A DNA stretch of 49,909 nucleotides, from positions 1-49,909 of the forward strand of contig JBFMCP010000025.1 of NCBI GenBank assembly GCA_040754455.1, read 5' to 3'. The stretch's first letter is position 1. Each line of letters begins with the position of its first letter. A program made the translations under genes and the position numbers. Below, piece by piece: positions 1-36,551 of the stretch. The notes beneath the pieces are model-generated. The model searched no databases. It saw only the letters and a list, made by a program, of their open reading frames with translations, and was not told where the DNA came from. Origin of the DNA: Nitrospirota bacterium (GTDB lineage Bacteria; Nitrospirota; Thermodesulfovibrionia; Thermodesulfovibrionales; Dissulfurispiraceae).

Positions 1-2
1 AT

Positions 3-791
3 TTAGAAAAATGGGCAGTGTTTGTGAACGATACCACTGTCTGGGGTAAACTCTCCATTACGCCGGGCATTCGCTATGATTTCACAAATACAAATGGTGA
101 TTTTACAAGTCCGAGCCTCGGGCTTACATATACACTGAATCCCAAAACCTTATTGAGGGCGTACATTGCGAGGGGGTTCCATATCCCCGCTTTCGACAAA
201 ACGTTTGTAGATATTTTTGGCTTTGATCCCAACCCAGACCTCAATGTTGAAAAGGTCTGGTCTTACCAGGGAGGAGTAGAGACCTCTCCTTTTGATCACC
301 TCTGGCTGAAGTTCTCGCTGTTCATGCACGATATCAAGGATGTCGTTACACAGGTGGGGTCTACTTTTGGGAATAAAGGGAAGCAGAGGAGGCAGGGGAT
401 GGAGATAGAGGTAAAGACTGTTCCTGTGTATAATACTTCTCTCTCCGCTGGTGCAACGTTTATTCGTGCAAAAGACTTGGATGACGAGACGGTCTTAAGA
501 AATACTCCCCGGTATACCTATGACATCGGTCTCACCTATGATGACCATAAATCATTGAGAGCGCTCCTGAAGGGCCGCTATATTTGGTGGAATGCAGATT
601 CGTCTAAAGGGGGCAGATACGACGCCTTCATCTTCGATTTCAGCATAAGCAAGATCATATTAAAAGGAAATGACCACACATTTGAAATCATCGCAGCTGC
701 GCATAATATATTCAACGGCGCTCAGCATCTAGCAGGAACATCAAAGAACCCGGGAAGATGGATCGAGGGCGGCATCAGATATACGTTCTAA
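3..791 (+). CDS. TonB-dependent outer-membrane receptor, C-terminal part (5' end outside window)
   Basis: Frame is open from position 3. Alternating beta-strand pattern, PGIRYD, LRAYIARGFHIP and NPDLNVEK (TBDR barrel motifs), and a C-terminal Phe (GGIRYTF). Confidence 0.9.
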   Translation, partial: LEKWAVFVNDTTVWGKLSITPGIRYDFTNTNGDFTSPSLGLTYTLNPKTLLRAYIARGFHIPAFDKTFVDIFGFDPNPDLNVEKVWSYQGGVETSPFDHLWLKFSLFMHDIKDVVTQVGSTFGNKGKQRRQGMEIEVKTVPVYNTSLSAGATFIRAKDLDDETVLRNTPRYTYDIGLTYDDHKSLRALLKGRYIWWNADSSKGGRYDAFIFDFSISKIILKGNDHTFEIIAAAHNIFNGAQHLAGTSKNPGRWIEGGIRYTF

Positions 792-800
792 TGTGTCTTG

Positions 801-825
801 CCCCTCCTGGGAGGGGAGTATTTTT
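801..825 (+). other. Short GC hairpin upstream of the precursor RBS
   Basis: CCCCTC-CTGG-GAGGGG (801-816) followed by AGTATTTTT. Confidence 0.4.
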
Positions 826-846
826 AAAGAAAGGAGGTATATCGAC

Positions 847-948
847 ATGAAATCACGCATTGTTGTGCTCAACAAGGGAATTGAAAAAGGAAAGCTGGCT
901 GAAGGAGTCTGTTGTGTTTCAGCGTATGTTTTCCTCTGGTGGGCTTAG
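847..948 (+). CDS. 33-aa putative RiPP precursor (geopeptide-like): MKSRIVVLNKGIEKGKLAEGVCCVSAYVFLWWA
   Basis: Strong RBS AAGGAGGT at 831-838, ATG 847, TAG 946-948. Lies between the TBDR and the radical SAM/SPASM gene. Leader-like IVVLNKGIE followed by a CC motif. Below the ORF-track length cutoff. Confidence 0.88.
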   Translation: MKSRIVVLNKGIEKGKLAEGVCCVSAYVFLWWA

Positions 949-964
949 TATTGTATAGGTCATC

Positions 965-997
965 AGAGGGGGAGCGCTAGCACTCCCCCTTTCTTTT
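965..997 (+). terminator. Intrinsic terminator-like hairpin after the precursor gene
   Basis: AGGGGGAG (967-974) pairs with CTCCCCCT (983-990), followed by TTCTTTT. Confidence 0.7.
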
Positions 998-1083
998 CTA
1001 CTTTTAGCAGGAGGGGGGCCTGAAAAGCGCTACACCTTCTCTCTCTTCCCTTTGGGAGCAGGAAGGGGTGCGCAAAAGAAGTT

Positions 1084-2397
1084 ATGTTGTTATCAAGGTA
1101 CTGTTCACTATATCCCTGCCACGGGGACCCGGACTCTTTGATGCTGTTTTCGGCAAAGAGGGGGGCAACTATTCTAATACCCGCATCCATGCTCGACGAC
1201 ATCAGGACCGGTGCGCTTGCTGACGAGGAAAGGGAGACACTCATTGAGCTTGGGTTCCTCACTTCCGATATCGAGGCGGAAAGAGCGGAAATGCTCGGCT
1301 TTATTGATGAGCTGAACGCCCTCCACAAGAGTCTCGATATCACGGTCGTGCTGAACCTCGACTGCAATCTCGCCTGTACCTACTGTTTCGAGGGGAAGCG
1401 AAAGGGGCGCTTCTTCCTCTCTCGTGAGACAGCGAATAGAATCGTTGATTTTATAAAGAGCAGAGACTTTACAGACAAAACGGAAATAAAAGCTACGTTC
1501 TACGGCGGTGAGCCGCTGCTGAGCACCGAACTTATTGCATATATATCAGAGGAACTAAAATCCTTTGCCGAAAGCAAGGGACTGGATTACCGCTTTTCAT
1601 TGGTGACCAATGGGACACTCCTCACGGCAAAGATGGTTGACAGACTGCTCCCACTCGGACTGCATGGGGCAAAGATAACGCTCGACGGTCCTCGAGAACT
1701 GCATGATGCGTTCAGGCCCTTTACGTCGGGCTCGGGCTCGTTCGATGCCATCATCGACAACATCAAGGCAGTGAACGGCAAGGTCAGGATACAGATAGGC
1801 GGCAATTATACCCGTGACAATTACCAGGAGTTCCCCTGTCTCCTCGATTACCTTTCGGAGGAGGGACTCGGCCCTGACAACATTGCCGCAATCAAATTCG
1901 ATCCCGTCATGCGGGAGAGCGAGGAGTTCGCACTGCCTGATTTCAATGACGGCTGCTGCTCGATCAATGAGCCGTGGCTTTTCGGGGCGAGCGTTTTTTT
2001 GCGCAATGAAATTTTAAGAAGGGGATATCGTACCCCAAAGATCGTTCCGTCGCCGTGCATTGTGGAGCTCAGGGACAGCTACGTGGTGAATTACGACGGA
2101 GCGCTCTATAAATGCCCGGGACTCATCGGCAGAGAGCACTACTGTATCGGCACTGTAAAGGACGGCGTCAAGGAGTACCGGCAATCCCATAATCTCGACA
2201 ACTGGAAAAACGAGGAGTGCCTGGGCTGTGTGCACCTCCCGCTCTGCTTCGGCGGCTGCAGGTACATAAAAGTGGTGCACGATGGAACCATGAGCGGCAT
2301 AGATTGCAAGAGGCCCTTTCTCGACGCGGTGCTCGGCGAGCTTGTTTTCCAGGATATAGCCTATGGTAGAGAAGAGGAAAAAGAGGAAAGGAGTTAA
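1084..2397 (+). CDS. Radical SAM/SPASM peptide maturase (geopeptide maturase-like)
   Basis: CNLACTYC (CxxxCxxC), FYGGEPLL, VTNGTLL and a SPASM Cys pattern (C..YKC..CLGCVHLPLCFGGC..C). The ~85-aa N-terminal extension could be an RRE. Adjacent to the Cys-Cys peptide gene. Confidence 0.92.
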   Translation: MLLSRYCSLYPCHGDPDSLMLFSAKRGATILIPASMLDDIRTGALADEERETLIELGFLTSDIEAERAEMLGFIDELNALHKSLDITVVLNLDCNLACTYCFEGKRKGRFFLSRETANRIVDFIKSRDFTDKTEIKATFYGGEPLLSTELIAYISEELKSFAESKGLDYRFSLVTNGTLLTAKMVDRLLPLGLHGAKITLDGPRELHDAFRPFTSGSGSFDAIIDNIKAVNGKVRIQIGGNYTRDNYQEFPCLLDYLSEEGLGPDNIAAIKFDPVMRESEEFALPDFNDGCCSINEPWLFGASVFLRNEILRRGYRTPKIVPSPCIVELRDSYVVNYDGALYKCPGLIGREHYCIGTVKDGVKEYRQSHNLDNWKNEECLGCVHLPLCFGGCRYIKVVHDGTMSGIDCKRPFLDAVLGELVFQDIAYGREEEKEERS

Positions 2398-2431
2398 TCC
2401 GGCGCGGTGATCGTTGCCGGCAGAATAACAA

Positions 2432-3364
2432 TTGATACCGATGAGATGCCATAAGTCTCATACGTGCTCGCGACGTGTACTCCCGATCGCGTTGCTTTTC
2501 GTGTTGCTGCTCTTTTCAGCTTCCGGCGTGCTCGCAGCGGAGATCGTTGTCGTGAAGAGCGGCGGCATCAAGCCCTACAATGAGGCCCTCGAGGGATTCA
2601 AAAGCGCGTATGACTGCGTCATCACGGAAATAAATCTCTCCGATTCGGGAAGACAGGATGTCACCGGCAAGATCGCTGAGCTTGCTCCCGACGCGGTCCT
2701 CGCCATCGGCACCGATGCCTTCAGGGCGGTGCGCTCGATCAAGGACCTTCCGGTCTTTTATACCATGATGCTTCCGTCGGAGTCCCTCGGTTCGTCCTCC
2801 AAAAATGTATCCGGTGTCAGCATGCTCCTCTCTCCTGAGTTGTATCTCGACACTATTGCGGGAATATTCCCCAGTGCACGGCGCGTCGGCCTTATCTACG
2901 ATCCCAGGAACATGGGGGGCTTTGTGCGAGAGGCGATGAAGGTTGCTCAGGCAAAGGGAGTCGAATTGATCGTGAAGGAGGCCAACAGATCGCGAGACGT
3001 GCCGGCAGTGATTGATATGCTGAGGGACAGGATCGACGTCTTCTGGATGCTTCCGGACCCGACGATCATCAATGGAGAGACGGTGAATTACCTGCTCCTC
3101 TTCTCCTTCCAGAATAATATTCCAATCCTTACGTTCTCGAATAAATACGTCGACATGGGAGCGTTGGCAGCACTGAATGTCAACCCTTTTGATCTTGGCG
3201 TTCAAACCGGAGAGATCGCAAGGGCGGTATTGACGGGAAAGAGCAGTAGAAATCCTGTGCGGGTCGATGCACGGAAGGCCTCCCTGACGATCAACAGGAA
3301 AGTGGCCAAGAAGTTGGGCATAAAGATAAACGACGAAATCAGCCAAGAGGTTGAGAACAGATAG
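2432..3364 (+). CDS. Periplasmic ABC-type substrate-binding protein, probably a sensor partner of the downstream kinase (start uncertain, ATG 2441 possible)
   Basis: Signal peptide (LLFVLLLFSASGVLAA), RVGLIYDP, DVFWMLPD and INRKVAKKLGI (ABC_sub_bind-type motifs). No permease or ATPase nearby. Stop overlaps the kinase start. Confidence 0.85.
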   Translation: MIPMRCHKSHTCSRRVLPIALLFVLLLFSASGVLAAEIVVVKSGGIKPYNEALEGFKSAYDCVITEINLSDSGRQDVTGKIAELAPDAVLAIGTDAFRAVRSIKDLPVFYTMMLPSESLGSSSKNVSGVSMLLSPELYLDTIAGIFPSARRVGLIYDPRNMGGFVREAMKVAQAKGVELIVKEANRSRDVPAVIDMLRDRIDVFWMLPDPTIINGETVNYLLLFSFQNNIPILTFSNKYVDMGALAALNVNPFDLGVQTGEIARAVLTGKSSRNPVRVDARKASLTINRKVAKKLGIKINDEISQEVENR

Positions 3365-4971
3365 TGACTACGGGACGTCGGAGGTATCGCTCCTTTCTGG
3401 CTGAATACAAAAAAAGCTTCGGCATCAAAATAATCCGGGCGTTTATAGCGGTTATCGTTATCGTGCTGAGCGCCTTTACCTTCTTCCTTATGTACTATCA
3501 GAGCCAGGGGATCAGAAGGGACCTGGCGAGAGAGGGGAGAATGCTCGCCAGTCTTTTGGCGTACAGCTCGAAGACCGGCGTCTTTGCTGAGAATGCAGAG
3601 CTGCTGAGAGACGTGGTGCAGGGCATTCTGAATCAGAAAGAGGTGGTGTCGGTTTCGGTGTATGCTTATGACGGGAGACCTCTCCTTACGCTCAGAAAAT
3701 CGTCATCTGCACCTTCGCAAAGAGTGGAAAAAAATCTCGAAAAACCGATCATGGCCAAACTCCAGGAAGCGAAATCCTTTGAAATGGTCGAGACCTCCCT
3801 TGCGTTTGAATTCATGAAGCCGGTGGTTATGGAGGTTTTTTCCGACACCGAGGAGGCGCTCTATTACAACCAGGAACACCGGCAGAAGGCAGAGAAAGTC
3901 ATAGGATATGTACAGGTGGTGCTGGATAAACACGTTTTGAACGAGAGGATAAAATCGATTCTCTTTACGAATGCGTTTATAACGCTGATCTTTATTCTTT
4001 CAGGCGCGGTCATTATTTTTATTGCGGTACGGAAGGTAACCAGGCCGCTCGCAAAACTTACTGAGGGGGTCAGGTTGCTGGGCGAGGGTGAGTACATGGG
4101 AGGGGTGCCGGTTGAATCTGAAGATGAAATAGGCAGGCTGGCCGGGGCCTTCAACACCATGTCGGAGAATCTGCTCAAGCGGGAAGAGGAGAAGAAGGCT
4201 TTAGAGGAGCAACTGGTGCAGGCAAAGAAGCTCGAAGCAATAGGCACGCTTGCTAAGGGCATCGCCCACGACTTTAATAACATTCTGACCACTGTCCAGG
4301 GAGCGGTGTACATTTTACAGAAAAGACTCGGCAGTGACAATCCTCTGCAGCAGTATACGGAAAAGATGCGTCATTCTTTAGTGAGGGCGCAGGACCTCGT
4401 ACAGAGCCTCCTTATTTTCAGCAGGGGACAGGTTGTCCGCCCCGAGCCGGTGAATCTCAACAAGCTCGTCGAGATGATAGAGCCCGCCCTCAGGAGTTGT
4501 GCCGGCGATCAGATAAAATGCGTGATTACCCCATCCCATGAGGCGCTTATGGTGATGGCCGACCGGGTACAGATGGAACAGGTCTTCATGAATCTCGCCT
4601 CGAATGCACGGGATGCCATGCCCGAAGGTGGAATGTTGATTATAACGACGGAGATGGTGAGTGTTGATGGAGAAAACGGGTATAATACTATTTTGCTGGC
4701 GCCGGGAAGATACGCTCTTGTCTCTGTCTCCGATACGGGGATGGGCATCAGCGAACGGATCAAGGAGAGGATATTCGAACCCTTTTTTACCACCAAAGAG
4801 GTCGGAAAGGGAACGGGACTCGGTCTTTCCATCGTGTACGGTATTATCGAGCAGCATAAAGGGCGCATCGAGGTGGTCACCGAAGAGGGAAAAGGAACGA
4901 CATTCATGGTCTATCTCCCGCTTTTTGAGGAATACCGGATGGCGGATCGAGGAGCCCAGGAAACCGTTTAA
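3364..4971 (+). CDS. Membrane sensor histidine kinase (periplasmic domain, HAMP, HisKA, HATPase)
   Basis: Two TM segments, HAMP (RPLAKL..DEIGRLAGAFNTM), H-box AHDFNNIL, N-box NLASNARDAM, and G-boxes DTGMGI, FFTTK, GTGLGL. Confidence 0.95.
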   Translation: MTTGRRRYRSFLAEYKKSFGIKIIRAFIAVIVIVLSAFTFFLMYYQSQGIRRDLAREGRMLASLLAYSSKTGVFAENAELLRDVVQGILNQKEVVSVSVYAYDGRPLLTLRKSSSAPSQRVEKNLEKPIMAKLQEAKSFEMVETSLAFEFMKPVVMEVFSDTEEALYYNQEHRQKAEKVIGYVQVVLDKHVLNERIKSILFTNAFITLIFILSGAVIIFIAVRKVTRPLAKLTEGVRLLGEGEYMGGVPVESEDEIGRLAGAFNTMSENLLKREEEKKALEEQLVQAKKLEAIGTLAKGIAHDFNNILTTVQGAVYILQKRLGSDNPLQQYTEKMRHSLVRAQDLVQSLLIFSRGQVVRPEPVNLNKLVEMIEPALRSCAGDQIKCVITPSHEALMVMADRVQMEQVFMNLASNARDAMPEGGMLIITTEMVSVDGENGYNTILLAPGRYALVSVSDTGMGISERIKERIFEPFFTTKEVGKGTGLGLSIVYGIIEQHKGRIEVVTEEGKGTTFMVYLPLFEEYRMADRGAQETV

Positions 4972-4988
4972 GCTGCGGAAAGCATCAA

Positions 4989-6341
4989 GTGAATACTGCA
5001 AAGAAAAAAGTACTGATCGTTGATGATGACAAAAACCTGAGGTCTGTTGTGAGAGATGTGCTCAGCGATGAGGGGTTTTCAGTAGCTGAAGCGCCGGACG
5101 GTGTGAGTGCTCTCAAGATATTTAAAAAAGACCTGCCCGATGCAGTACTCCTCGACCTGAACATGCCTCATATGGGCGGGCTCGAGACCCTCCAGGAGCT
5201 CAAAAAGATAAACAGTCATGTGCCGGTCATCATTCTCACCGCGTACAGTGATATTCCCACTGTTGTGGAGGCTGTCAAGAGAGGCGCCTACGACTTTACA
5301 GTAAAGCCTCCCGATTTCGACCGGCTTATCATCACCGTGAAGCGGGCGGTGGAGCGGCGCGATCTCGAAATGGAGGTCAGGCGGGCTACAACGGCGCTGG
5401 AGTTATCGCTCGAGCAGGTCTTCGGCAGGAGCGACGCCATGAAGACCGTCATCAATCAGATCCGCCAGGTGGCACAGACCGAGTTCTCCGTTATTATCCA
5501 GGGTGAAACCGGCACCGGAAAATCCTTCGTGGCAAATACCATACACAACATGAGCAGGAGGGCCGACAAATCTTTTGTGCGTGTCGATATCGGCCTCATT
5601 CCCGATACGCTCGTCGAAAGCGAGCTCTTCGGCTACCGGAAAGGCGCTTTCACCGGTGCTGAGAAGAACAAGATCGGTTATTTCGAGACGGCAGGCTGCG
5701 GGACCATTTTCATCGATGAGCTCGAGAACATGTCTCCTTACGTGCAGAGCAAGCTGCTCAGTGTTATCGAGAGGAAAAAGGTGTATCCCCTCGGCAGCAC
5801 CGAGTCCGTGGCCGTGGATGTCCGCGTCATTGCCGCAACGAATAAGGATATACAGAGGAGCATGCGTGCGGGAGACTTCAGGGATGACCTCTTCTACCGG
5901 CTCGGAGAATTCATCATTAATCTCCCTCCCCTGAGGCAGCGGGCAGAAGATATTCCCTTCTTTGCGCAGAAATTTCTGCTGGATGCATGCACTGAGCTGA
6001 ACAAACAGATAAAGGGTATGCATGACAGCGCCGTTGAACTCCTGCTCCAGCACACCTGGCCGGGGAATATACGGGAATTGAAAAACGTTATTCGAAGGGC
6101 GGTGCTTTCAGCGGAGAGCGATGTTATTCAGCAGGAGCATATAGAGCTTCTGATCAAGAACCATCATACTGAGGTTCCGGCGTCTCCACTGTCCCTTAAA
6201 GACGAGATCAGGATGCTCGAAAAGAGAAGAATCCGGGAGGCACTGGCCAAAACAGGCGGCAACAAGACAAAGGCAGCCGAGCTGCTCAGGATAAGCTATA
6301 CCAATATTTGTGAAAAGATAAAGGAATACGGCATCGGCTGA
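4989..6341 (+). CDS. Sigma-54-dependent (NtrC-family) response regulator
   Basis: Receiver (VDDD, LLDLNMP), Walker A GETGTGKS, GAFTGA loop, WPGNIREL and a Fis-type HTH. Confidence 0.95.
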   Translation: MNTAKKKVLIVDDDKNLRSVVRDVLSDEGFSVAEAPDGVSALKIFKKDLPDAVLLDLNMPHMGGLETLQELKKINSHVPVIILTAYSDIPTVVEAVKRGAYDFTVKPPDFDRLIITVKRAVERRDLEMEVRRATTALELSLEQVFGRSDAMKTVINQIRQVAQTEFSVIIQGETGTGKSFVANTIHNMSRRADKSFVRVDIGLIPDTLVESELFGYRKGAFTGAEKNKIGYFETAGCGTIFIDELENMSPYVQSKLLSVIERKKVYPLGSTESVAVDVRVIAATNKDIQRSMRAGDFRDDLFYRLGEFIINLPPLRQRAEDIPFFAQKFLLDACTELNKQIKGMHDSAVELLLQHTWPGNIRELKNVIRRAVLSAESDVIQQEHIELLIKNHHTEVPASPLSLKDEIRMLEKRRIREALAKTGGNKTKAAELLRISYTNICEKIKEYGIG

Positions 6342-6344
6342 CGA

Positions 6345-6384
6345 TTATACATAATTTGTATAACACTATACAGATTTTGTATAA
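6345..6384. promoter_or_regulatory. Tandem palindromic enhancer (UAS) for a sigma-54 activator
   Basis: TTATACA-TAATT-TGTATAA (6345-6363) and TATACA-GATTT-TGTATA (6367-6383), centres 21 bp apart, about 80-110 bp upstream of a -24/-12 promoter. Confidence 0.75.
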
Positions 6385-6456
6385 TTCCCCTCTTTCTTCT
6401 CGACCTGTCTCTCTAAATAATCCATCAAAAACAAGTGCATATGATTGAAGAACACC

Positions 6457-6472
6457 TGGCATTTCTCTTGCA
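6457..6472 (+). promoter_or_regulatory. Sigma-54 (-24/-12) promoter
   Basis: TGGCATTTCTCTTGCA = GG-N10-GC with TGGCA/TTGCA consensus flanks. Confidence 0.8.
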
Positions 6473-6614
6473 ATAATACAGAGTGAATATGATTGAGAAG
6501 AGATTATATTTTTATGGTCCCGTACGATCTCGATACCTTCGGAACAGGAGTGGAGACTCAAAGACAGTGCACCTCATGAAAGACAATACGACTACGGCGT
6601 TACGGGGGAGCTTG

Positions 6615-6875
6615 ATGAGATTTCAGGTTGCGGTTATCGAAAAGAAAGGAGTTGCTTGTGCTGTTGCAATCGTCAACAAATCCATCATTGATAACAGGTT
6701 CGAGGCGGGGATGGCTATGCAGTCATTGAACAGCGTGCTTCCTGACAAGCATATCATCCTCATGGCATATGACAACGGAGGAACACCGACCTACTATGGA
6801 CGCAGCGACATCGTACAATCACTCGCTGCGACCCCGCTCAGTGACCTGTCCTGGAGGGAGTACCATATCGAGTAG
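6615..6875 (+). CDS. Small hypothetical protein (86 aa, MRFQVAVIEKKG...), probable target of the sigma-54 promoter
   Basis: RBS GGGGGAG at 6604-6610 before ATG 6615. The ORF-track start (6483) coincides with the predicted transcription start and is unlikely. Confidence 0.7.
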   Translation: MRFQVAVIEKKGVACAVAIVNKSIIDNRFEAGMAMQSLNSVLPDKHIILMAYDNGGTPTYYGRSDIVQSLAATPLSDLSWREYHIE

Positions 6876-7302: not shown

Positions 7303-7437
7303 ATGACTATGCACGTATCGCTGCAGCCGCTCATTGCGCTGATTGCGGGGATATTGATTCTCGTCATGCCGCGGCTGCTCAACTATATTGTTGCCGTATA
7401 CCTGATCATCATAGGGGTCCTGGGACTGATACGCTGA
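7303..7437 (+). CDS. DUF3096-like small membrane protein (44 aa)
   Basis: RBS AGGAGG. MTMHVSLQPLIALIAGILILVMPRLLNYIVAVYLIIIGVLGLIR contains the characteristic PRLLNYIVA. Not in the ORF track. Confidence 0.85.
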   Translation: MTMHVSLQPLIALIAGILILVMPRLLNYIVAVYLIIIGVLGLIR

Positions 7438-29399: not shown

Positions 29400-31052
29400 A
29401 TGAGCGTAGCATCTCAGCAGTACCGGCACTCTACAGGACGTCCCGTTACTATGGGCGCTATGGCCATGGTGAGCACTTCGCACTACCTCGCCAGCGCGGC
29501 AGGATTCTCCATGCTCGACAGGGGAGGTTCCGCTGTTGATGCGCTCATCGCCGCCAATGCGACACTTGCAGTGGTTTACAACCATATGGCCGGCCTCGGC
29601 GGCGATCTGTTTGCCCAGGTATGGGATCCAAAAACAGGAAAGGTCGAGGCATTGAACGGGTCCGGCCGCTCCGGTGAACGGGTCACGATCGATGCGTATC
29701 GTTCCAAGGGGTGGGACAAAATCCATCCGAGAGGCCCGCTTGCCGCCAACACCGTTCCCGGCGTAGTGGATGCATGGCGGAAGCTCCACGAGCGGCACGG
29801 AAAGCTGGAATGGAAAGAGCTGTTTGGACCGGCTCTCCGCCACGCCCACGGCTTTCCGGTCTCGCAGAAGCTCCGCGATTACATCGAGCAGTATTCCGAC
29901 ATGCTGAAGGAGTTCGAGACCGCATCAGCTATCTTTCTGCCCGGCGGACAGGCGCCGAAAGCAGGTTCAATTGTGCGACAGCCGGACCTGGCGAGCAGCC
30001 TCTCTCTGATCGCCGAAAAGGGTGCTGACGTTTTCTATCGGGGAGAACTGGCGGAAAGGATGGTGCGCGGGCTCAAGCAGGCGGGCGGGCTCCTGACCGA
30101 GGATGATTTCGCTTCCCACTCCTCCGATTGGGTGGAGCCGCTGCGCACCAATTATAAGGGATACGAAGTCACCGAGCTTCCGCCGAACACCCAGGGTATC
30201 GCCACCCTGATGATCCTGAACCTGATCGAGGCAATGGACCTGCGGGATATCGGCGAGGGCACGGCGGATTACTACCACCTGATGACCGAAGCGGTGAAGC
30301 TTGCCTTTGCGGACCGCGACCGCTGGGTGACCGATCCCGATACGATTGAGGTCCCCTATGACCGGCTGCTCTCGAAGGAGTATGCCGCGGAGCGCAGCCG
30401 CAAGATCGATATGAACCGGGCCACACCCGAGGACGATATACACCCCGGCGTAACCGAACCGGCAATGGCAGGGCACGGCGGCGATACGGTCTATATGTGC
30501 GCGGCGGATGAGGACGGCCTCTGCGTGTCGCTCATCCAGAGCGTTTACTTCGAATTCGGATCGGCGTTCATACCGCCCGGCACCGGCATACTCCTGCAGA
30601 ACAGGGGCTCGTTCTTCAAGCTCGACCCCGACCATCCCAATGCGCTCGCGCCGCGAAAGCGTACCTTCCATACGATCATCCCGGCGATGGCGCTCAAGGA
30701 CGGAAAACCTGCGCTCCTGTTCGGTACCATGGGCGGTGAGGGCCAGCCCCAGACCCAGACGGCGATGCTCACCCGCATGGCTGACTTCGACTTCAATGTA
30801 CAGGAAGCGATCGAGGCGCCGCGCTGGCTCTATGGAAGGACGTGGGGCGAATCCTCACGGTCGCTCAAGCTGGAGGGGCGCATACCGGACGGCGTCGTCG
30901 CGGAGTTGAAGCGCCGCGGCCACGATGTCCAGATGATGGAGGACTGGTCGCAGAAGATGGGGCATGCCCAGGCGATCTGGATCGATAGAGAGCAGGGTGT
31001 GCTGCATGGCGGCGCCGACCCCCGCGGTGAAGGGCTCGCTATCGGCCACTAA
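29400..31052 (+). CDS. Gamma-glutamyltransferase-family Ntn hydrolase (YwrD/HpxW-like clade), cytoplasmic
   Basis: HMAGLGGD, PPNTQG, autoprocessing GGDTVY, GTMGGEGQPQ and PRWLYGRTWGESSRSLKLEGR. No signal peptide. Confidence 0.9.
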   Translation: MSVASQQYRHSTGRPVTMGAMAMVSTSHYLASAAGFSMLDRGGSAVDALIAANATLAVVYNHMAGLGGDLFAQVWDPKTGKVEALNGSGRSGERVTIDAYRSKGWDKIHPRGPLAANTVPGVVDAWRKLHERHGKLEWKELFGPALRHAHGFPVSQKLRDYIEQYSDMLKEFETASAIFLPGGQAPKAGSIVRQPDLASSLSLIAEKGADVFYRGELAERMVRGLKQAGGLLTEDDFASHSSDWVEPLRTNYKGYEVTELPPNTQGIATLMILNLIEAMDLRDIGEGTADYYHLMTEAVKLAFADRDRWVTDPDTIEVPYDRLLSKEYAAERSRKIDMNRATPEDDIHPGVTEPAMAGHGGDTVYMCAADEDGLCVSLIQSVYFEFGSAFIPPGTGILLQNRGSFFKLDPDHPNALAPRKRTFHTIIPAMALKDGKPALLFGTMGGEGQPQTQTAMLTRMADFDFNVQEAIEAPRWLYGRTWGESSRSLKLEGRIPDGVVAELKRRGHDVQMMEDWSQKMGHAQAIWIDREQGVLHGGADPRGEGLAIGH

Positions 31053-31085: not shown

Positions 31086-32756
31086 ATGAAGGAAAGCATT
31101 GACGTATCCTTTTGGCCCTGGATCGTTGCCGCCACTCCTCTGGCGGCGATACTCATCCTGCTGGTGGGGCTTCGGTGGAAAGCGGCAACTGCCGCTCCCG
31201 TCGGTTACTTCATCGCTACGATCGCGGCCCTGACACTCTTCCGGGCATCGCCCCGCATCATCGCCCTGCAGACGGTCAAGGGAATATGGGATGCGATCTT
31301 CATTCTCTATGTGATCGTCCCGGCGCTGCTCCTCTACCAGGTTTCGAAAGAGGCCGGCGCGTTTCAAGCGTTGCGACGCGGTATCGAAGCGTACACCCCG
31401 AACGACCTGCTGCATGTCCTTGCCTTCGGCTGGGTCTTCGCCAGCTTCCTGCAGGGTATCACCGGCTTCGGCGCGCCCATAGCCGTAACCGCGCCGCTGC
31501 TGGTCGCCGTCGGCGTAGTCCCGGTCTGGGCGGTCATCATCCCTTTGATCGGCCATGCCTGGGCCAATACTTTCGGCACACTGGCTGTGGCCTGGAACGG
31601 GCTGCAGCTGGTAACCGAGATGCAGAGCCCGGCTACGACCGCTATCATAGCCGCGGTGATGCTGCTCCTGGCCAACCTGCTGGCCGGACTCACCATCGCC
31701 TGGCTCTTCGGGAAGGGGAGGGGCATTCGCGAGGGCCTGCCCGTAGTGTTGATCGTATCAGCGGTCCATAGTGTCGGACAGCTTATCCTTGCGCCGCTCG
31801 TGCCCGAGCTGGCCAGCTTCCTTCCGGCAACCGTAGCGGTGGGCGTCGTAATCATGCTGGGAAGGAGCCGCTGGTACCGGAACCCCACCGGGGTCGAGAC
31901 CAGCCGGGTCATGCAGAAAGGGGAGCTGCAACAGCAACGGGGAGAAGACCGGAAAAAAGAGAGGACAGGAGGCGGTTCCGAACAGGAAGAGATGTCGCTC
32001 CCGCTGGCCCTCTCTCCCTACTTTGTGCTGATTGCCTTGATAGTCCTGGTGCTGCTTATTCCTCCCGTTAAAGACGCTCTTTCCGCCTTCCAGATCGGCC
32101 TTTCCTTCCCGGAGCTCGAGACGGGACGGGGAGTCGTTACCGAGGCTGCCGACGCTTACAGCGCCTTTTCCCCGCTCACACATCCCGGTACGTTTCTGCT
32201 CCTCTCTGCGATCTTTGCCTTTGTGACGTTCCGCTGGGCAGGCACAATAGATCGGGGCAGGATGGATGAGGTGCTGATCAGAACCATTCGCACCAGTATC
32301 CCTTCCGCTATTGCCCTTTTCGCCTTGGTGCCCCTGGCAAAAGTGATGGAAGGCTCCGGTCAGACCCTCGAGCTGGCGCTCGGCATTGCCGGTGTCGCGA
32401 CCGGAACGGTGTACGCATTCGTCGCGCCGCTGATCGGAGCGGTCGGGTCGTTCATGACCTCCAGTAATCTGTCGTCGAACATCCTCTTCGGCCCGCTCCA
32501 GGAACGTACCGCAGCCGCCCTGGGCGTTGCGCAGGCGGCGATCCTTGCAGGACAGACTGCGGGCGCTGCGATAGGCAACAGCATCGCGCCGAGCAACGTC
32601 CTGCTCGGTATCGGTTCGGTAGGTTTGACCGGCAAGACCGGCGAAGTAATTCGCCGTACCATCACGTACATGCTGGCCGGTGTGCTCCTGGCGGGAGCCG
32701 TCTCACTTCTCTATGTGCTCTTTTTGTCGGGAGGAGCAGGAGGGTCTGCACAATGA
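31086..32756 (+). CDS. L-lactate permease (LctP) family transporter, paralog 1
   Basis: FLQGITGFGAPIA, ANTFGTL, TSSNLSSNILF and GAAIGNSIAP. Confidence 0.88.
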   Translation: MKESIDVSFWPWIVAATPLAAILILLVGLRWKAATAAPVGYFIATIAALTLFRASPRIIALQTVKGIWDAIFILYVIVPALLLYQVSKEAGAFQALRRGIEAYTPNDLLHVLAFGWVFASFLQGITGFGAPIAVTAPLLVAVGVVPVWAVIIPLIGHAWANTFGTLAVAWNGLQLVTEMQSPATTAIIAAVMLLLANLLAGLTIAWLFGKGRGIREGLPVVLIVSAVHSVGQLILAPLVPELASFLPATVAVGVVIMLGRSRWYRNPTGVETSRVMQKGELQQQRGEDRKKERTGGGSEQEEMSLPLALSPYFVLIALIVLVLLIPPVKDALSAFQIGLSFPELETGRGVVTEAADAYSAFSPLTHPGTFLLLSAIFAFVTFRWAGTIDRGRMDEVLIRTIRTSIPSAIALFALVPLAKVMEGSGQTLELALGIAGVATGTVYAFVAPLIGAVGSFMTSSNLSSNILFGPLQERTAAALGVAQAAILAGQTAGAAIGNSIAPSNVLLGIGSVGLTGKTGEVIRRTITYMLAGVLLAGAVSLLYVLFLSGGAGGSAQ

Positions 32757-32971
32757 AATGGTACAAGCAGCGGGTGTGGCAGATGGGAGCAGGAGCACTG
32801 ATGATTCTGTTCGGCGCATGGCTCGCCTATAGCGCTGCCGCAGGGGAGATGACGAACACTCCGCTCCTGTGGACCGCCCTTGCCCTCATTTTTTTCGGAC
32901 TTCTCATTCCCCTTATGGCAAAAGCCCTCGAAGCTGCGCAGGATAAAGGGGGGGAGGAGAACGAAAGCTGA
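32753..32971 (+). CDS. Small two-TM protein following LctP paralog 1
   Basis: ATGA overlap with the upstream gene; two hydrophobic segments. Confidence 0.7.
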   Translation: MKWYKQRVWQMGAGALMILFGAWLAYSAAAGEMTNTPLLWTALALIFFGLLIPLMAKALEAAQDKGGEENES

Positions 32972-34650
32972 TGAACGCCGCTCCGCCGGTCACATCCCTT
33001 ACCTGGCTTGCGGCGTTCCTCCCTATTCTGGTTCTCCTGGTGCTGCTGGTGTGGCGCCGCTGGAGCACCTCGGCCGCAGCCCCCCTCGCTCTGGCCGGAG
33101 CAGTCGCTGCCGCGCTGCTCTTTTACCGCACACCGCTGCACACGCTGGCGGTTGCGGCAGGAAAGGGCATCTGGGACGCGATCTTCGTGCTGTACGTCAT
33201 CTGGCCGGCGCTCATTCTGTACAATGTCGCCCACGAGGCCGGGGCCTTCGGCGCTATGCAGCGCGGCCTGCGCCACCTCATTCCCGACCGGCTGCTGGTA
33301 GTGCTGGCCTTCGCATGGGTGCTCGCCTCATTCATACAGAGCATCGCCGGCTTCGGCACGAACCTGGCGGTAACGACGCCCCTGCTGATCGGGCTGGGTG
33401 TACAGCCGGTGTATGCCGTCCTGCTTCCGATGATCGGGGCGGCGTGGGCCAATATGTTCGGCTCGCTGGGCACCGCATGGCTGGCCACCCAAACCGTCGT
33501 CGATATTCCCGATACCACCGTTATACTGCGGTATGCTGCGGCACTCATCTGGGTTCCCAACTTGATGGCAGGGATTGCGATCGCCTGGTTTTACGGAAAG
33601 ACCTGGGCGCTGAAGCGCGGCGGTCCTGCCATTGTAGCGCTCTCGCTTATTCAAGGCGGGTTGCAGTTTCTCCTGGTGCCGATAATCCCTACCATAGGTA
33701 CGTTCCTTGCGACCTCCGCCTCTCTCGGGGCGCTCTTCATCCTTAATCGGTGGGGGTTCTATCGTCAGCAGGACCGGGATGAGCCGCACCTGATTTTCAC
33801 GGAATCCGGAAAACGGGCTTTTTACGAGGAGAACAAAGAACGTGAGGCGAAACTGTCGGTGAAGCCGACTGAGCCTTCCCCAACGCCGGGGCCGCGTGAG
33901 AGACCGGGGATGTCGCTTGCGCTCGCCTTTGCCCCCTATGCCGTTCTCGCCGTCCTCGCCGTCACAGCGCTGCTGATACCACCCGTCAACCATATCCTCG
34001 AACAATTCCGGGTGGGCCTGCCATTCCCGGACGCTACCACCGGGTTCGGGGTGGAGCAGAAAGCGGTCGACGCTTACGCCGCCTTTACTCCGCTGACGCA
34101 TCCCGGCACACTGCTGCTGCTCTCGGCTACGGCGGGCTATCTCCTCTACCGTAAGAGGGGGCTATATGGAAAAGAGGACACGCCGGCGGCCCTACTTTCA
34201 CTGGCGGCAGAGGACGCCTTGCCCGCCACCACCGCAATCGCCGCACTGCTGCTGATCAGCAAGGTGATGGACCACTCGGGTGAAACGACGGTGCTGGCCC
34301 TGGGAATAGCGCAGGTATCCTCTCCGGCAGTCTACGCGGGGGCGAGCGACTTCATTGGCATTCTGGGATCGCTGGTCACCTCATCCAACACGGCCTCGAA
34401 TGTCCTGTTCGCCCCGTTGCAAGCCACTGCTGCGCGTGCCCAGGAGCTTTCCGTCAATTTGATACTTGCGGCGCAGTCCGCCGGAGGAGCGGTGGGCAAT
34501 GCGATGGCTCCCGGCGACGCCCTCCTGGGCGCCACGGTGGCGGGCCTGTCGGGGAGGATAGGGGCTGTGCTGGCGAGAGCGCTGCCGTGGACATTGATAA
34601 CCGGCGCGCTCGTCTCGGCATTTACGCTCGGGATCTACTTCTTAATGTGA
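32971..34650 (+). CDS. LctP family transporter, paralog 2
   Basis: FIQSIAGFGT, ANMFGSL, TSSNTASNVLF and GGAVGNAMAP. Confidence 0.88.
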   Translation: MNAAPPVTSLTWLAAFLPILVLLVLLVWRRWSTSAAAPLALAGAVAAALLFYRTPLHTLAVAAGKGIWDAIFVLYVIWPALILYNVAHEAGAFGAMQRGLRHLIPDRLLVVLAFAWVLASFIQSIAGFGTNLAVTTPLLIGLGVQPVYAVLLPMIGAAWANMFGSLGTAWLATQTVVDIPDTTVILRYAAALIWVPNLMAGIAIAWFYGKTWALKRGGPAIVALSLIQGGLQFLLVPIIPTIGTFLATSASLGALFILNRWGFYRQQDRDEPHLIFTESGKRAFYEENKEREAKLSVKPTEPSPTPGPRERPGMSLALAFAPYAVLAVLAVTALLIPPVNHILEQFRVGLPFPDATTGFGVEQKAVDAYAAFTPLTHPGTLLLLSATAGYLLYRKRGLYGKEDTPAALLSLAAEDALPATTAIAALLLISKVMDHSGETTVLALGIAQVSSPAVYAGASDFIGILGSLVTSSNTASNVLFAPLQATAARAQELSVNLILAAQSAGGAVGNAMAPGDALLGATVAGLSGRIGAVLARALPWTLITGALVSAFTLGIYFLM

Positions 34651-34658
34651 GAGGGAGA

Positions 34659-34841
34659 ATGAGAAAAGAGACACTGTTTATCGCTGCCGCCCTGCTTCTT
34701 GCGGCCTCTTTGGCTCTTATTGTGTACGGTCTGCAGAACGAAACATCATGGTTATGGCGCACCGGCTTATGGGCAATCCTTCTGGCAATGATCCTTTCCC
34801 TCGCTTCGCACTGGAGCGATCAGGGGAGCCGCAAAGATTGA
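34659..34841 (+). CDS. Small two-TM protein following LctP paralog 2 (60 aa)
   Basis: RBS GAGGGAG, ATG 34659. MRKETLFIAAALLL...YGLQNETSWLWRTGL... Confidence 0.7.
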   Translation: MRKETLFIAAALLLAASLALIVYGLQNETSWLWRTGLWAILLAMILSLASHWSDQGSRKD

Positions 34842-34925
34842 TCGAAAGAATCCGCCATAGACACTCTTCGGGACGAGGCGAAGTATTCATGCCCTTTACG
34901 GAACGCAGCAACGAGAGGTGATGCA

Positions 34926-36551
34926 ATGCAGAATCAACTTCCTATAGGTCTGTTTCATTGGATAGTGGCCCTTCTTCCGATACTCGTTCTCCTCTTCCTT
35001 CTGGTCTTCCTCAGGTGGAAGGGGCCGCAGGCAGGGCCGGTGAGCATGTTCACCGCCTGGGCGGTGGCGCTCCTCTTCTTCCGCACCCCTTTCGAAACCC
35101 TGGCGGTCGCCAGCGCCAAGGGCGTATGGGATGCCATTTTCATCCTCTATGTTATCTGGCCTGCCCTCCTCCTCTACAAGATAGCTGACCGGGCCGGGGC
35201 CTTCGAGGCTCTCAGAATAGGCATACGCCGGTTCAGTCGGAACAGGCTCTTTCTGGTGCTCGCCTTCGGCTGGATATTTGTCTCCTTTCTCCAGGGGATC
35301 GCGGGATTCGGCGTTCCGATAGCGGTTGCCGCGCCCCTGCTCGTCGCCATCGGTGTGCGGCCGCTGTACGCCGTCGCCATTGCGCTGATCGGCCATTCCT
35401 GGGCAAACATGTTCGGCACCCTCGCGGTCGGCTGGCTTGCGACCATTAAAGTGGTAGAGCTTCAGAATGTGACTGGAACCGCTTTTCAGACCGCGATCCT
35501 GCTCTGGATCCCCAACCTCCTGGCGGGCTTTACTATCGCATGGCTCTTCGGCAGGATGAATGGGATCAGGCATGCCTGGCCCCTCGTCCTCATCATCTCT
35601 CTCATCCACGGCGGGGGACAGCTCGCGCTGGTGCTCTGGAACCCGGTCGTTTCGACCTTTATCCCCGCAACCGTCGCACTGGGTGCGCTCTACCCTCTTT
35701 CGCGCTGGGAGAGGTACAGTGAGCCTCAAGATATCGAGAGCGAAATCATGCAGGAGCGGAAGGGAAAGAAGGAGACGGAAGAGAAAGAGCCTGTCATGGG
35801 GCTCTGGATGTCCGTACTGCCCTATGTCGTTCTGGCGGTATCAATTGTAATAGGGTCCGGCATCCCCCAGGTCGAAAGCATTCTGGGTCAGTTCGAGATC
35901 GGCTTGCCCTTCCCGGAGACGACAACCGGATACGGGCTCACCACAGAAGCGATCCGACCCTATTCACCGTTCAGTCTTTTCACCCATCCCGGCACGTATC
36001 TCCTGCTCGCGTCGCTTATAGGCTGGACAGTATACAGAGCTAAGGGCTATTACCGGAAAGCAGGCCGTGAGAAGGAGGGCATCTGGAGCGGACTGATCGG
36101 CAATGCGATCCCCGCCTCGATAGCGGTCACCTCGTTCCTGGTGCTGAGCAAGACAATGGACGATTCGGGGCAGACGAACGTGCTGGCGCTCGGCATCTCG
36201 GCGGTGTCTCCTCCCCTGGTGTACGCATTTTTTGCAAACTGGATCGGGATTGTGGGAGCCTTCATCACCTCGAGCAACACCGCCTCGAACATCCTCTTCT
36301 CGCCTCTTCACGATACCGTGGCACAGACGGAGCAGGTACTCTCACAGACAACGCTCATTGCCGCCCAGTCTACCGGCGGCGCGATCGGCAACGCGATAGC
36401 GCCCGCCAATATAATTCTGGGGACGAGCACGACGCAGCAGACCGGCAAGCTCGGCGAGATACTGAAGATGACGCTTCCCTGGGCTGCCGTTGCCGCGGTA
36501 TTGACCGGCATTGTCACTGTTCTGATAAACAATGTAACCTTCGTGAGGTGA
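34926..36551 (+). CDS. LctP family transporter, paralog 3
   Basis: FLQGIAGFGVPIA, ANMFGTL, TSSNTASNILF and GGAIGNAIAP. Confidence 0.88.
   Translation: MQNQLPIGLFHWIVALLPILVLLFLLVFLRWKGPQAGPVSMFTAWAVALLFFRTPFETLAVASAKGVWDAIFILYVIWPALLLYKIADRAGAFEALRIGIRRFSRNRLFLVLAFGWIFVSFLQGIAGFGVPIAVAAPLLVAIGVRPLYAVAIALIGHSWANMFGTLAVGWLATIKVVELQNVTGTAFQTAILLWIPNLLAGFTIAWLFGRMNGIRHAWPLVLIISLIHGGGQLALVLWNPVVSTFIPATVALGALYPLSRWERYSEPQDIESEIMQERKGKKETEEKEPVMGLWMSVLPYVVLAVSIVIGSGIPQVESILGQFEIGLPFPETTTGYGLTTEAIRPYSPFSLFTHPGTYLLLASLIGWTVYRAKGYYRKAGREKEGIWSGLIGNAIPASIAVTSFLVLSKTMDDSGQTNVLALGISAVSPPLVYAFFANWIGIVGAFITSSNTASNILFSPLHDTVAQTEQVLSQTTLIAAQSTGGAIGNAIAPANIILGTSTTQQTGKLGEILKMTLPWAAVAAVLTGIVTVLINNVTFVR

Follow-up and report, generated by a model that had tools for sequence, protein, structure and literature searches.

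What does a ribosomally made peptide with two adjacent cysteines do in an operon that also encodes an outer-membrane importer and a periplasmic sensor? The locus raising this question occupies the first 6.9 kb of a stretch of 49,909 nucleotides (nt), hereafter the window, which corresponds to positions 1 to 49,909 of contig JBFMCP010000025.1 (forward strand) in the genome assembly GCA_040754455.1 of a member of Nitrospirota. An earlier note, made from the sequence of the window alone, proposed a loop in which a peptide is modified by a radical S-adenosylmethionine (SAM) enzyme, imported by a TonB-dependent receptor, and sensed by other products of the same operon. Our sequence comparisons indicate that this Nitrospirota operon is genuine and widely conserved, with a Cys-Cys peptide and a radical SAM enzyme encoded beside an outer-membrane importer and a periplasmic sensor, and that uptake and sensing of the modified peptide by the cell are probable. 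Some of our checks do not favor a simple self-signalling loop. We read the locus as a cassette for a ribosomally produced, post-translationally modified peptide (RiPP) of the geopeptide type joined to an import-and-sense module, by which the peptide is made, re-imported, sensed, and reported; we hold this reading to be evenly poised between right and wrong. The co-oriented run of six genes described in the earlier note was recovered at the same positions, all on the plus strand, and the locus is laid out as follows (aa, amino acids).

3-791, plus strand: TonB-dependent receptor, C-terminal 262 residues, cut by the contig end (PF00593, 120 bits)
801-816, plus strand: putative GC-rich short hairpin followed by a T run, just 3' of the receptor stop (consensus scan; 6 pairs, 5 of them GC)
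831-839, plus strand: ribosome-binding site of the peptide gene, AAAGGAGGT (read in the sequence itself; 8 nt between GGAGGT and ATG)
847-948, plus strand: precursor peptide of 33 aa, MKSRIVVLNKGIEKGKLAEGVCCVSAYVFLWWA (homologous small open reading frames, ORFs, in related loci)
965-992, plus strand: terminator-like hairpin in the gap between precursor and maturase genes, a 10-bp stem followed by CTTTTCT (consensus scan)
1084-2397, plus strand: radical SAM/SPASM peptide maturase, 437 aa (TIGR04280, PF04055)
2432-3364, plus strand: periplasmic solute-binding protein of PF04392 with a signal peptide (110 bits)
3364-4971, plus strand: membrane histidine kinase with a transmembrane segment, periplasmic sCache_4 (about residues 46-198), a second transmembrane segment, HAMP, HisKA, and HATPase (domain scan)
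4989-6341, plus strand: sigma-54-dependent response regulator with REC, AAA+, and HTH_8 (Pfam and NCBIfam scans)
6457-6472, plus strand: sigma-54-type promoter-like site TGGCATTTCTCTTGCA, the probable target of the activator (motif scan)
6615-6875, plus strand: 86-aa protein without a family, probably the output of the sigma-54 site (start of the longest ORF, 6483)

We surveyed 401 Nitrospirota genomes and detected a maturase above the cut-off in 44 of them, at 51 places including the window; the 50 other loci were compared with the window (individual loci bear L numbers). The receptor gene was found just 5' of the peptide and maturase genes on the same strand in 44 loci and on the opposite strand in L099, and none was found in L097; altogether, the receptor was adjacent in 45 of the 46 testable loci, four loci having no upstream DNA. 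The peptide-maturase pair is thus almost always kept with one subfamily of TonB-dependent receptors. The gene of the binding protein was located 3' in 36 loci and divergent, 5' of the receptor gene, in 6, and that of L086 was detected with a Geobacteraceae query (43 of 49 testable loci). The sensor part of the kinase stood beside the binding protein in 39 of these 43, the DNA ending too early in three, and L058 being without it. The Geobacteraceae locus L013 possesses the same five parts in another order. Three arrangements therefore keep the linkage, namely the colinear one, the one with the binding protein and kinase genes divergent upstream, and the Geobacteraceae order. The persistence of the linkage through rearrangements and into a second phylum favors the signalling reading; the earlier note had named maturase homologs without such neighbors as the outcome that would speak against it, and these counts point the other way.

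The maturase matched TIGR04280, the geopeptide radical SAM maturase family (curated cut-off 400 bits), at 593.2 bits with an E value of 3e-178, aligned over 1-427 of 428, and a six-frame search of the genome with TIGR04280 gave the same result, so that the guess of a geopeptide maturase in the earlier note was borne out. The enzyme also matched PF04055 (57.9 bits), and the cluster motif CNLACTYC (CxxxCxxC) was read in its translation. Its C-terminal cysteines are arranged as C-x13-G-x4-C and C-x2-C-x5-C-x3-C (ECLGCVHLPLCFGGC), fitting the SPASM pattern; no match to the Pfam SPASM domain was listed for the maturase at E<=0.01. The next-best matches were CefB (179 bits), TIGR04463 (168 bits), the ranthipeptide maturase PapB (141 bits), and SCIFF (107 bits), all far under their own cut-offs, and DynA, the dynobactin maturase, was a distant match (79.8 bits). 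Judged by these scores, the nearest families of the maturase are SPASM maturases that form Cys thioethers. Those families resemble the present enzyme in acting on Cys-bearing substrates, and differ from it in being mostly Gram-positive and in lacking linkage to a TonB receptor. A role in quorum sensing has been reported for clostridial ranthipeptides.

The 33-aa ORF with two adjacent cysteines, which the earlier note had singled out, is a genuine precursor. It comprises a leader MKSRIVVLNKGIEKGKLAEGV, the invariant CC, and the core tail VSAYVFLWWA, and its stop codon lies 135 nt before the maturase gene, the pairing of a short Cys peptide with a maturase being that of the geopeptide type. A small CC-containing ORF was found ahead of the maturase gene in 14 of 14 loci searched (13 Nitrospirota metagenome-assembled genomes and one of Geobacteraceae) and in 44 of the 47 sampled loci with upstream DNA, namely 43 plus the 88-aa Lys/Ala-rich ORF of L098. 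As some loci are the same records in both sets (e.g. L002/L069, L004/L078, and L012/L094), the two counts cannot be summed. Upstream of the maturase genes of L097 and L099, no CC peptide ORF was found, and L077 has only a single-Cys candidate of 85 aa in place of the CC peptide. That ORF (oriented 3519-3776, between receptor and maturase) carries its one cysteine near the end (…AHCFNWPAGPLK) and may be a one-cysteine variant of the precursor. Two tandem peptide copies were found in each of L057 and L070.

Aligned at the two cysteines, the peptides conform to CC-x-G (30 of 45)-A (27 of 45)-hydrophobic-hydrophobic-P-hydrophobic, and the tails are 7-13 residues long. They are highly variable and differ between the cassettes of genomes that have two; about 60% of the tails are hydrophobic or aromatic, like that in the window, and the remainder are hydrophilic or basic. 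We dropped the idea that the hydrophobic aromatic tails mimic the C-terminal signal of outer-membrane proteins, as darobactin does, as it is a resemblance only and about 40% of the tails are hydrophilic. Two kinds of leader occur, one of the type KRIVVLxKGxxKK and the other made of long Lys/Ala-rich repeats. Very long leaders of the latter kind (KKKA-type repeats, up to 88 aa in total) occur in L059, L062, L063, L078, L090, L092, L093, L098, and L104, and these precursors gave weak matches to histone-H1-like models; we know of no RiPP leader of this kind. Among 40 of the 129 strain differences, four fell within the peptide ORF of the window: two synonymous changes and a double one that results in V21L.

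The peptide itself did not match the model of the geopeptide precursor, a comparison that the earlier note had suggested. TIGR04229, the model of that precursor (cut-off 30 bits), gave no match to the window peptide even at E<=10 and none at the locus in a six-frame search, and none of the 45 related peptides reached the cut-off. Sub-threshold matches of 11.6-23.3 bits, spanning the stretch from leader to CC, were obtained in 19 of the 45, including the close relative in L075 (15.2 bits). The best six-frame match of TIGR04229 in the genome of the window (C29, 20.3 bits) lies inside a gene of 417 aa and was rejected as spurious. The geopeptide system of NCBIfam/TIGRFAMs, a hypothetical equivalog defined by computation (TIGR04229 plus TIGR04280), is therefore matched here by the enzyme and by a Cys-Cys peptide gene just before it; it differs in its precursor model and in its host, as the window belongs to a member of Nitrospirota and not to Geobacter or a Geobacter-like bacterium as the earlier note had it. 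A limited literature search found no paper naming the geopeptide or TIGR04280 family and none on a cassette of a receptor, a binding protein, and a radical SAM RiPP. Because no paper naming it was found, we regard the family as one without a known product or function.

Of the 46 peptide genes, 41 have a stable stem after the stop codon. In the window, the 70 nt after the peptide gene gave -22.3 kcal/mol with a z of only -1.4, too weak to pass the z criterion despite the 10-bp stem and the T run. The hairpin at 965-992 probably acts in partial termination or transcript stabilization, and would then probably hold the precursor RNA above the enzyme RNA.

The receptor is cut in the window since the window start is the end of the contig. 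Its N-terminal 410 residues lie on G000:C60:3-1232 (minus strand) and contain a signal peptide, the TonB-box-like DLVVVSP, and a plug region. Contigs of strain relatives (runs X4 and X6) cover positions 1-2500 of the window and extend more than 11 kb to the left of its start; we regard the contig break as an assembly artefact because these contigs bridge the gap. TonB is encoded in the genome. The receptor is 54% identical to that of L001, and its best named families are siderophore and haem receptors, far below their cut-offs.

The binding protein fits the description of an orphan given in the earlier note, as we saw no permease or ATPase of the ATP-binding cassette (ABC) type in the window and the genome has one PF04392 gene, that of the operon. 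The start of the kinase gene does overlap the stop of the binding-protein gene, the GTG and the TAG sharing one base. A binding protein without a transporter, its gene adjoining and translationally coupled to that of a kinase with a periplasmic sensor, is the arrangement of LuxP-LuxQ and TorT-TorS, in which the kinases depend on binding proteins, and it is found here at the level of the genes. The likeness ends at the families, the binding protein being of PF04392 and the sensor fold of sCache_4, and the ligand would first need the TonB receptor. The profile of the binding protein matched the structures 3lkv (136 bits), 3lft (104 bits), and 6hni (105 bits), which we take to be components of ABC importers; they share the fold family and bind free amino acids, and the gene studied here is followed by a kinase gene and no transporter gene. 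We scanned 24 partner kinases chosen by their similarity to the sensor part in the window: all 24 possess HAMP, and 15 possess sCache_4 at E<=1e-4. Their transmitters vary (HisKA, HisKA_3, or a hybrid with REC), and so do the regulators among loci, being a sigma-54 activator, a LuxR-type response regulator, or a phosphorelay. Because transmitters and regulators vary between loci, the conserved portion of the module is its input side.

Where the regulator is a sigma-54 activator, the output can be followed. There are 12 such loci including the window, of which 11 were testable for a 3' site, as the DNA of L068 runs out. A sigma-54-like site was located directly 3' of the activator gene in 9 of these 11, the exceptions being L014, which has a transposase there, and L100; rpoN is encoded in the genome of the window. 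L100 carries a perfect sigma-54 consensus, TGGCACGCTAATTGCA, inside its receptor gene, 1556 nt before the maturase start. The gene downstream of the site encodes the 86-aa protein in the window and the congener L075, small LuxR-type helix-turn-helix proteins in L092, L093, and L098, a LuxR protein with an autoinducer-binding domain (PF03472) in L003, and receiver-domain proteins in L007, L077, and L104. The LuxR genes suggest a cascade that would join the peptide sensor to a LuxR-type regulator; two of them lie at the following positions in oriented coordinates.

L003, 6002-6842: LuxR-family gene behind the sigma-54 site
L092, 9458-9923: LuxR-family gene behind the sigma-54 site

In the window, the earlier note had placed an ORF of 130 aa behind the site at 6457. 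The protein is most likely of 86 aa (6615-6875), since residues 42-130 of the long ORF (start 6483) are 48% identical to an equally placed 86-aa ORF of L075 and GGGGGAG stands 4 nt ahead of the ATG at 6615. This protein had no match in Pfam or NCBIfam, and a homology search retrieved one near-identical cluster only. In the Atlas, it corresponded to clusters of hypothetical proteins of 86 aa, which have at most 2704 members and are predicted to fold alike (TM 0.87-0.92).

A number of results weigh against the reading that the operon makes, re-imports, and senses its own product. The operon starts with sigma-70-like hexamers ahead of the receptor gene, and the sigma-54 site, lying past the activator gene, serves second-tier regulators or other genes rather than the peptide. 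In the window, the motif scan found no sigma-54-like site ahead of either the receptor gene or the peptide gene, and only L007 of the 12 activator-type loci has one between receptor and peptide. The autoinduction envisaged in the earlier note is not what these promoters describe; the circuit has an output cascade and no visible positive feedback on the peptide. No dedicated exporter or leader protease was found in the operon, upstream of it, or conserved in the relatives; a general export route may serve the product instead. The earlier note had allowed for both lying upstream; the upstream neighbor proved to be a divergent oxidoreductase gene, and the genes 5' of the receptor vary between loci (BrkB, ATP synthase, DUF2400, and others). 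A search for the exporter in the remainder of the window was likewise fruitless, Pfam assigning 36 further ORFs to unrelated genes. Among 45 peptides, no acceptor residue is conserved except for the small residues at +2 and +3. No binding protein was found in 6 of the 49 testable maturase loci (L056, L065, L089, L094, L096, and L097).

The remaining points of this kind concern the tie between sensor and peptide. The profile of the binding protein matched 205 of the 401 genomes at E<=1e-20, compared with the 44 genomes that have the maturase. In a tree of 63 binding proteins inferred by a quick method with a midpoint root, 40 linked and 6 unlinked sequences formed a supported clade (SH-aLRT 96), and 11 unlinked ones formed a separate clade without maturase. 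The earlier note had looked for co-variation between the core and the binding protein, and it was not seen in 19 loci with complete gene sets, a small sample analyzed by Mantel and partial Mantel tests with a crude distance. Core-tail distance did correlate with the distance between maturases (r 0.36) and with that between receptors (r 0.38), in favor of the reading, and hardly with that between binding proteins (r 0.15) or kinase sensors (0.19). With the maturase controlled, the partial r was -0.23 for the binding protein (p 0.96), -0.17 for the kinase sensor (p 0.93), and 0.16 for the receptor (p 0.15, not significant). Were it the invariant, modified CCxGA part that the binding protein reads, one would not expect them to co-vary. 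Lastly, the PF04392 proteins of known structure (3lkv, 3lft, and 6hni) bind free L-Trp, L-Tyr, and L-Phe according to Table 1 of PMC10443332, and the ligands given there are free amino acids, not peptides.

Some loci carry only the receiving parts. L118 and L119 encode the receptor, binding protein, and kinase, and no peptide or maturase follows the receptor gene; L117 has the same three genes, and its contig ends soon past the receptor. TIGR04280 gave no match at E<=1e-60 in the genomes of L117, L118, and L119, which are 98-100% complete. In these receiver-only loci, the TonB receptor gene is divergent from those of the binding protein and kinase:

L118, 4954-9452: receiver-only locus
L119, 5009-10301: receiver-only locus
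L117, 5461-9609: receiver-only locus

The receptors and binding proteins of L118 and L119 nest among the linked ones, and the L119 receptor is 55% identical to that of L055. Pairs of binding protein and kinase without maturase, L126 and L127, also lie deep in the linked clade. Such loci would speak for a shared, extracellular ligand. In G209, G151, and G226, the maturase matches are C-terminal fragments or interrupted by stops, and they stand beside intact binding-protein genes; production may have decayed there while the sensor was kept, or the assemblies may be in error.

Of the self-signalling loop proposed at the outset, then, the linkage, the single PF04392 gene, and the receiver-only loci give support, and the feedback, the exporter or protease, and the co-variation with the binding protein do not. 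We propose a "make, share, re-import and report" circuit rather than a classical autoinduction loop, because there is no positive feedback on the peptide gene. In such a circuit, the enzyme would bind the leader and cross-link or otherwise alter the CC-x-G-A core, and the modified peptide would leave the cell by a route for which no exporter gene is linked. The receptor would return the product across the outer membrane, and the periplasmic binding protein would present it to the kinase on the pattern of LuxP-LuxQ or TorT-TorS; for the enzyme, receptor, and binding protein, these roles are suggested by linkage and family membership. The kinase would then phosphorylate the sigma-54 activator, and the activator, to judge from the conserved position of the promoter, would fire the 6457 promoter for the 86-aa protein, the equivalent promoter in relatives driving regulators of the LuxR type or with receiver domains. 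A broader proposal, that Cys-Cys peptides modified by radical SAM enzymes are diffusible signals between cells of diderms in several phyla, with TonB-gated import and periplasmic readout, and that receiver-only genomes eavesdrop on them, is tentative, and we are inclined to doubt it.

The absence of a feedback promoter before the peptide gene would also suit a peptide that is a scavenging agent, i.e., a metallophore-like public good. The Cys-Cys peptide would load a scarce metal or nutrient outside the cell, the receptor would import it, and the sensor would report its arrival. TonB-dependent receptors are classical importers of metal chelates, the nearest named families of the present one being, far below their cut-offs, those for siderophores and haem, the two adjacent cysteines are invariant, and piracy of a shared good could account for the receiver-only loci. 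There is also a precedent in the methanobactin operons, which encode the precursor MbnA, MbnB/C, the TonB-dependent transporter MbnT, and the periplasmic binding protein MbnE. They resemble the cassette in encoding a RiPP with its own TonB-dependent importer and periplasmic binding protein, and differ from it in that the cassette has a radical SAM/SPASM maturase in place of MbnBC, a PF04392 protein coupled to a kinase, and no sign of metal regulation. Pfam scans of the window genes and 147 ORFs from 10 related loci revealed no MbnB or MbnC families, the radical SAM enzyme being the only maturase. Before 35 receptor genes, Fur-box-like sites were not enriched (best match 11.8 of 19 on average versus 11.1 in shuffled sequences; scored against the E. 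coli Fur consensus), and the only 8-mers shared there were A-rich words. The cassette has no linked permease, ATPase, or reductase of the inner membrane, its flanks are not conserved, and the nearest enzyme families turn the Cys sulfur into thioethers, which would remove the thiols. We regard a scavenging agent as unlikely.

The second alternative holds that the two-component system does no more than stand beside the RiPP genes, and that what it senses is a periplasmic compound unrelated to the peptide, for instance an aromatic amino acid. The amino-acid ligands of the solved PF04392 proteins (PMC10443332, Table 1), the finding that the core co-varies with neither the binding protein nor the kinase sensor, the differing regulators, and the 205 genomes with a binding-protein match would all suit it. 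The pair is indeed general: in 20 binding-protein loci picked, not at random, from genomes without a maturase match, the kinase sensor followed the binding protein in 18 and a radical SAM homolog was present in none. Yet free amino acids need no TonB receptor, although one lay within 7 kb in 11 of the 20 picked loci as well. The fact that the genes stay adjacent in 43 of 49 loci, despite rearrangements and across two phyla, together with the fact that the sole PF04392 gene of the genome is in the operon, argues against mere neighborhood, and the lack of a sigma-54 site before receptor or peptide in the window and in 11 of the 12 activator-type loci leaves no visible control of the peptide gene by the system. 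We find an unrelated ligand improbable. That the peptide is an antagonist, i.e., a bacteriocin-like RiPP for which the receptor is the entry port of the target or a means of self-protection and by which the sensor detects attack by kin, is most improbable: many diderm RiPPs such as microcins enter via TonB receptors, the core tail is highly variable with different tails in two-cassette genomes, and DynA is a distant match, but there is no conserved immunity gene, exporter, or protease, an entry receptor in its own operon would sensitize the producer, and the conserved periplasmic sensor would be left unexplained.

Two features of the window lie beyond the operon. A 44-codon ORF at 7303-7437 stands behind AAGGAGG, with the 86-aa gene on one side and a convergent metallophosphoesterase gene on the other, and its peptide is very hydrophobic (MTMHVSLQPLIALIAGILILV…). 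At 31086-36548, three genes of the lactate-permease family (PF02652) stand in tandem after a gamma-glutamyltranspeptidase gene (29400-31049).

Signalling by peptide pheromones is characteristic of Gram-positive bacteria; in bacteria with an outer membrane, well-established cases of peptide signalling are rare. The cassette conserved in 44 of the 401 sampled Nitrospirota genomes, and present in Geobacteraceae as well, brings together as one unit the genes for a ribosomal peptide and its maturase, for an importer in the outer membrane, and for a sensor in the periplasm. To the operon described in the earlier note, the present analysis adds the pattern of output promoters, the receiver-only loci, the negative result on co-variation, and the wide occurrence of the sensor pair without the maturase. 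If the product is what the sensor binds, a geopeptide family that has been a database entry without a function would gain a testable role. The parts of the cassette are small and separable, comprising a 33-aa peptide, one enzyme, one soluble binding protein, and one sigma-54 promoter. If the product is a scavenging agent, it would represent a new class of RiPP metallophores. If the product is the ligand of the sensor, the cassette would represent a new route of peptide sensing in which TonB-dependent import is the gate, found in anaerobes of environmental importance and in relatives of nitrite oxidizers, and if the pheromone reading is true, it would be a peptide pheromone system of the Gram-negative type with a new, import-gated logic.

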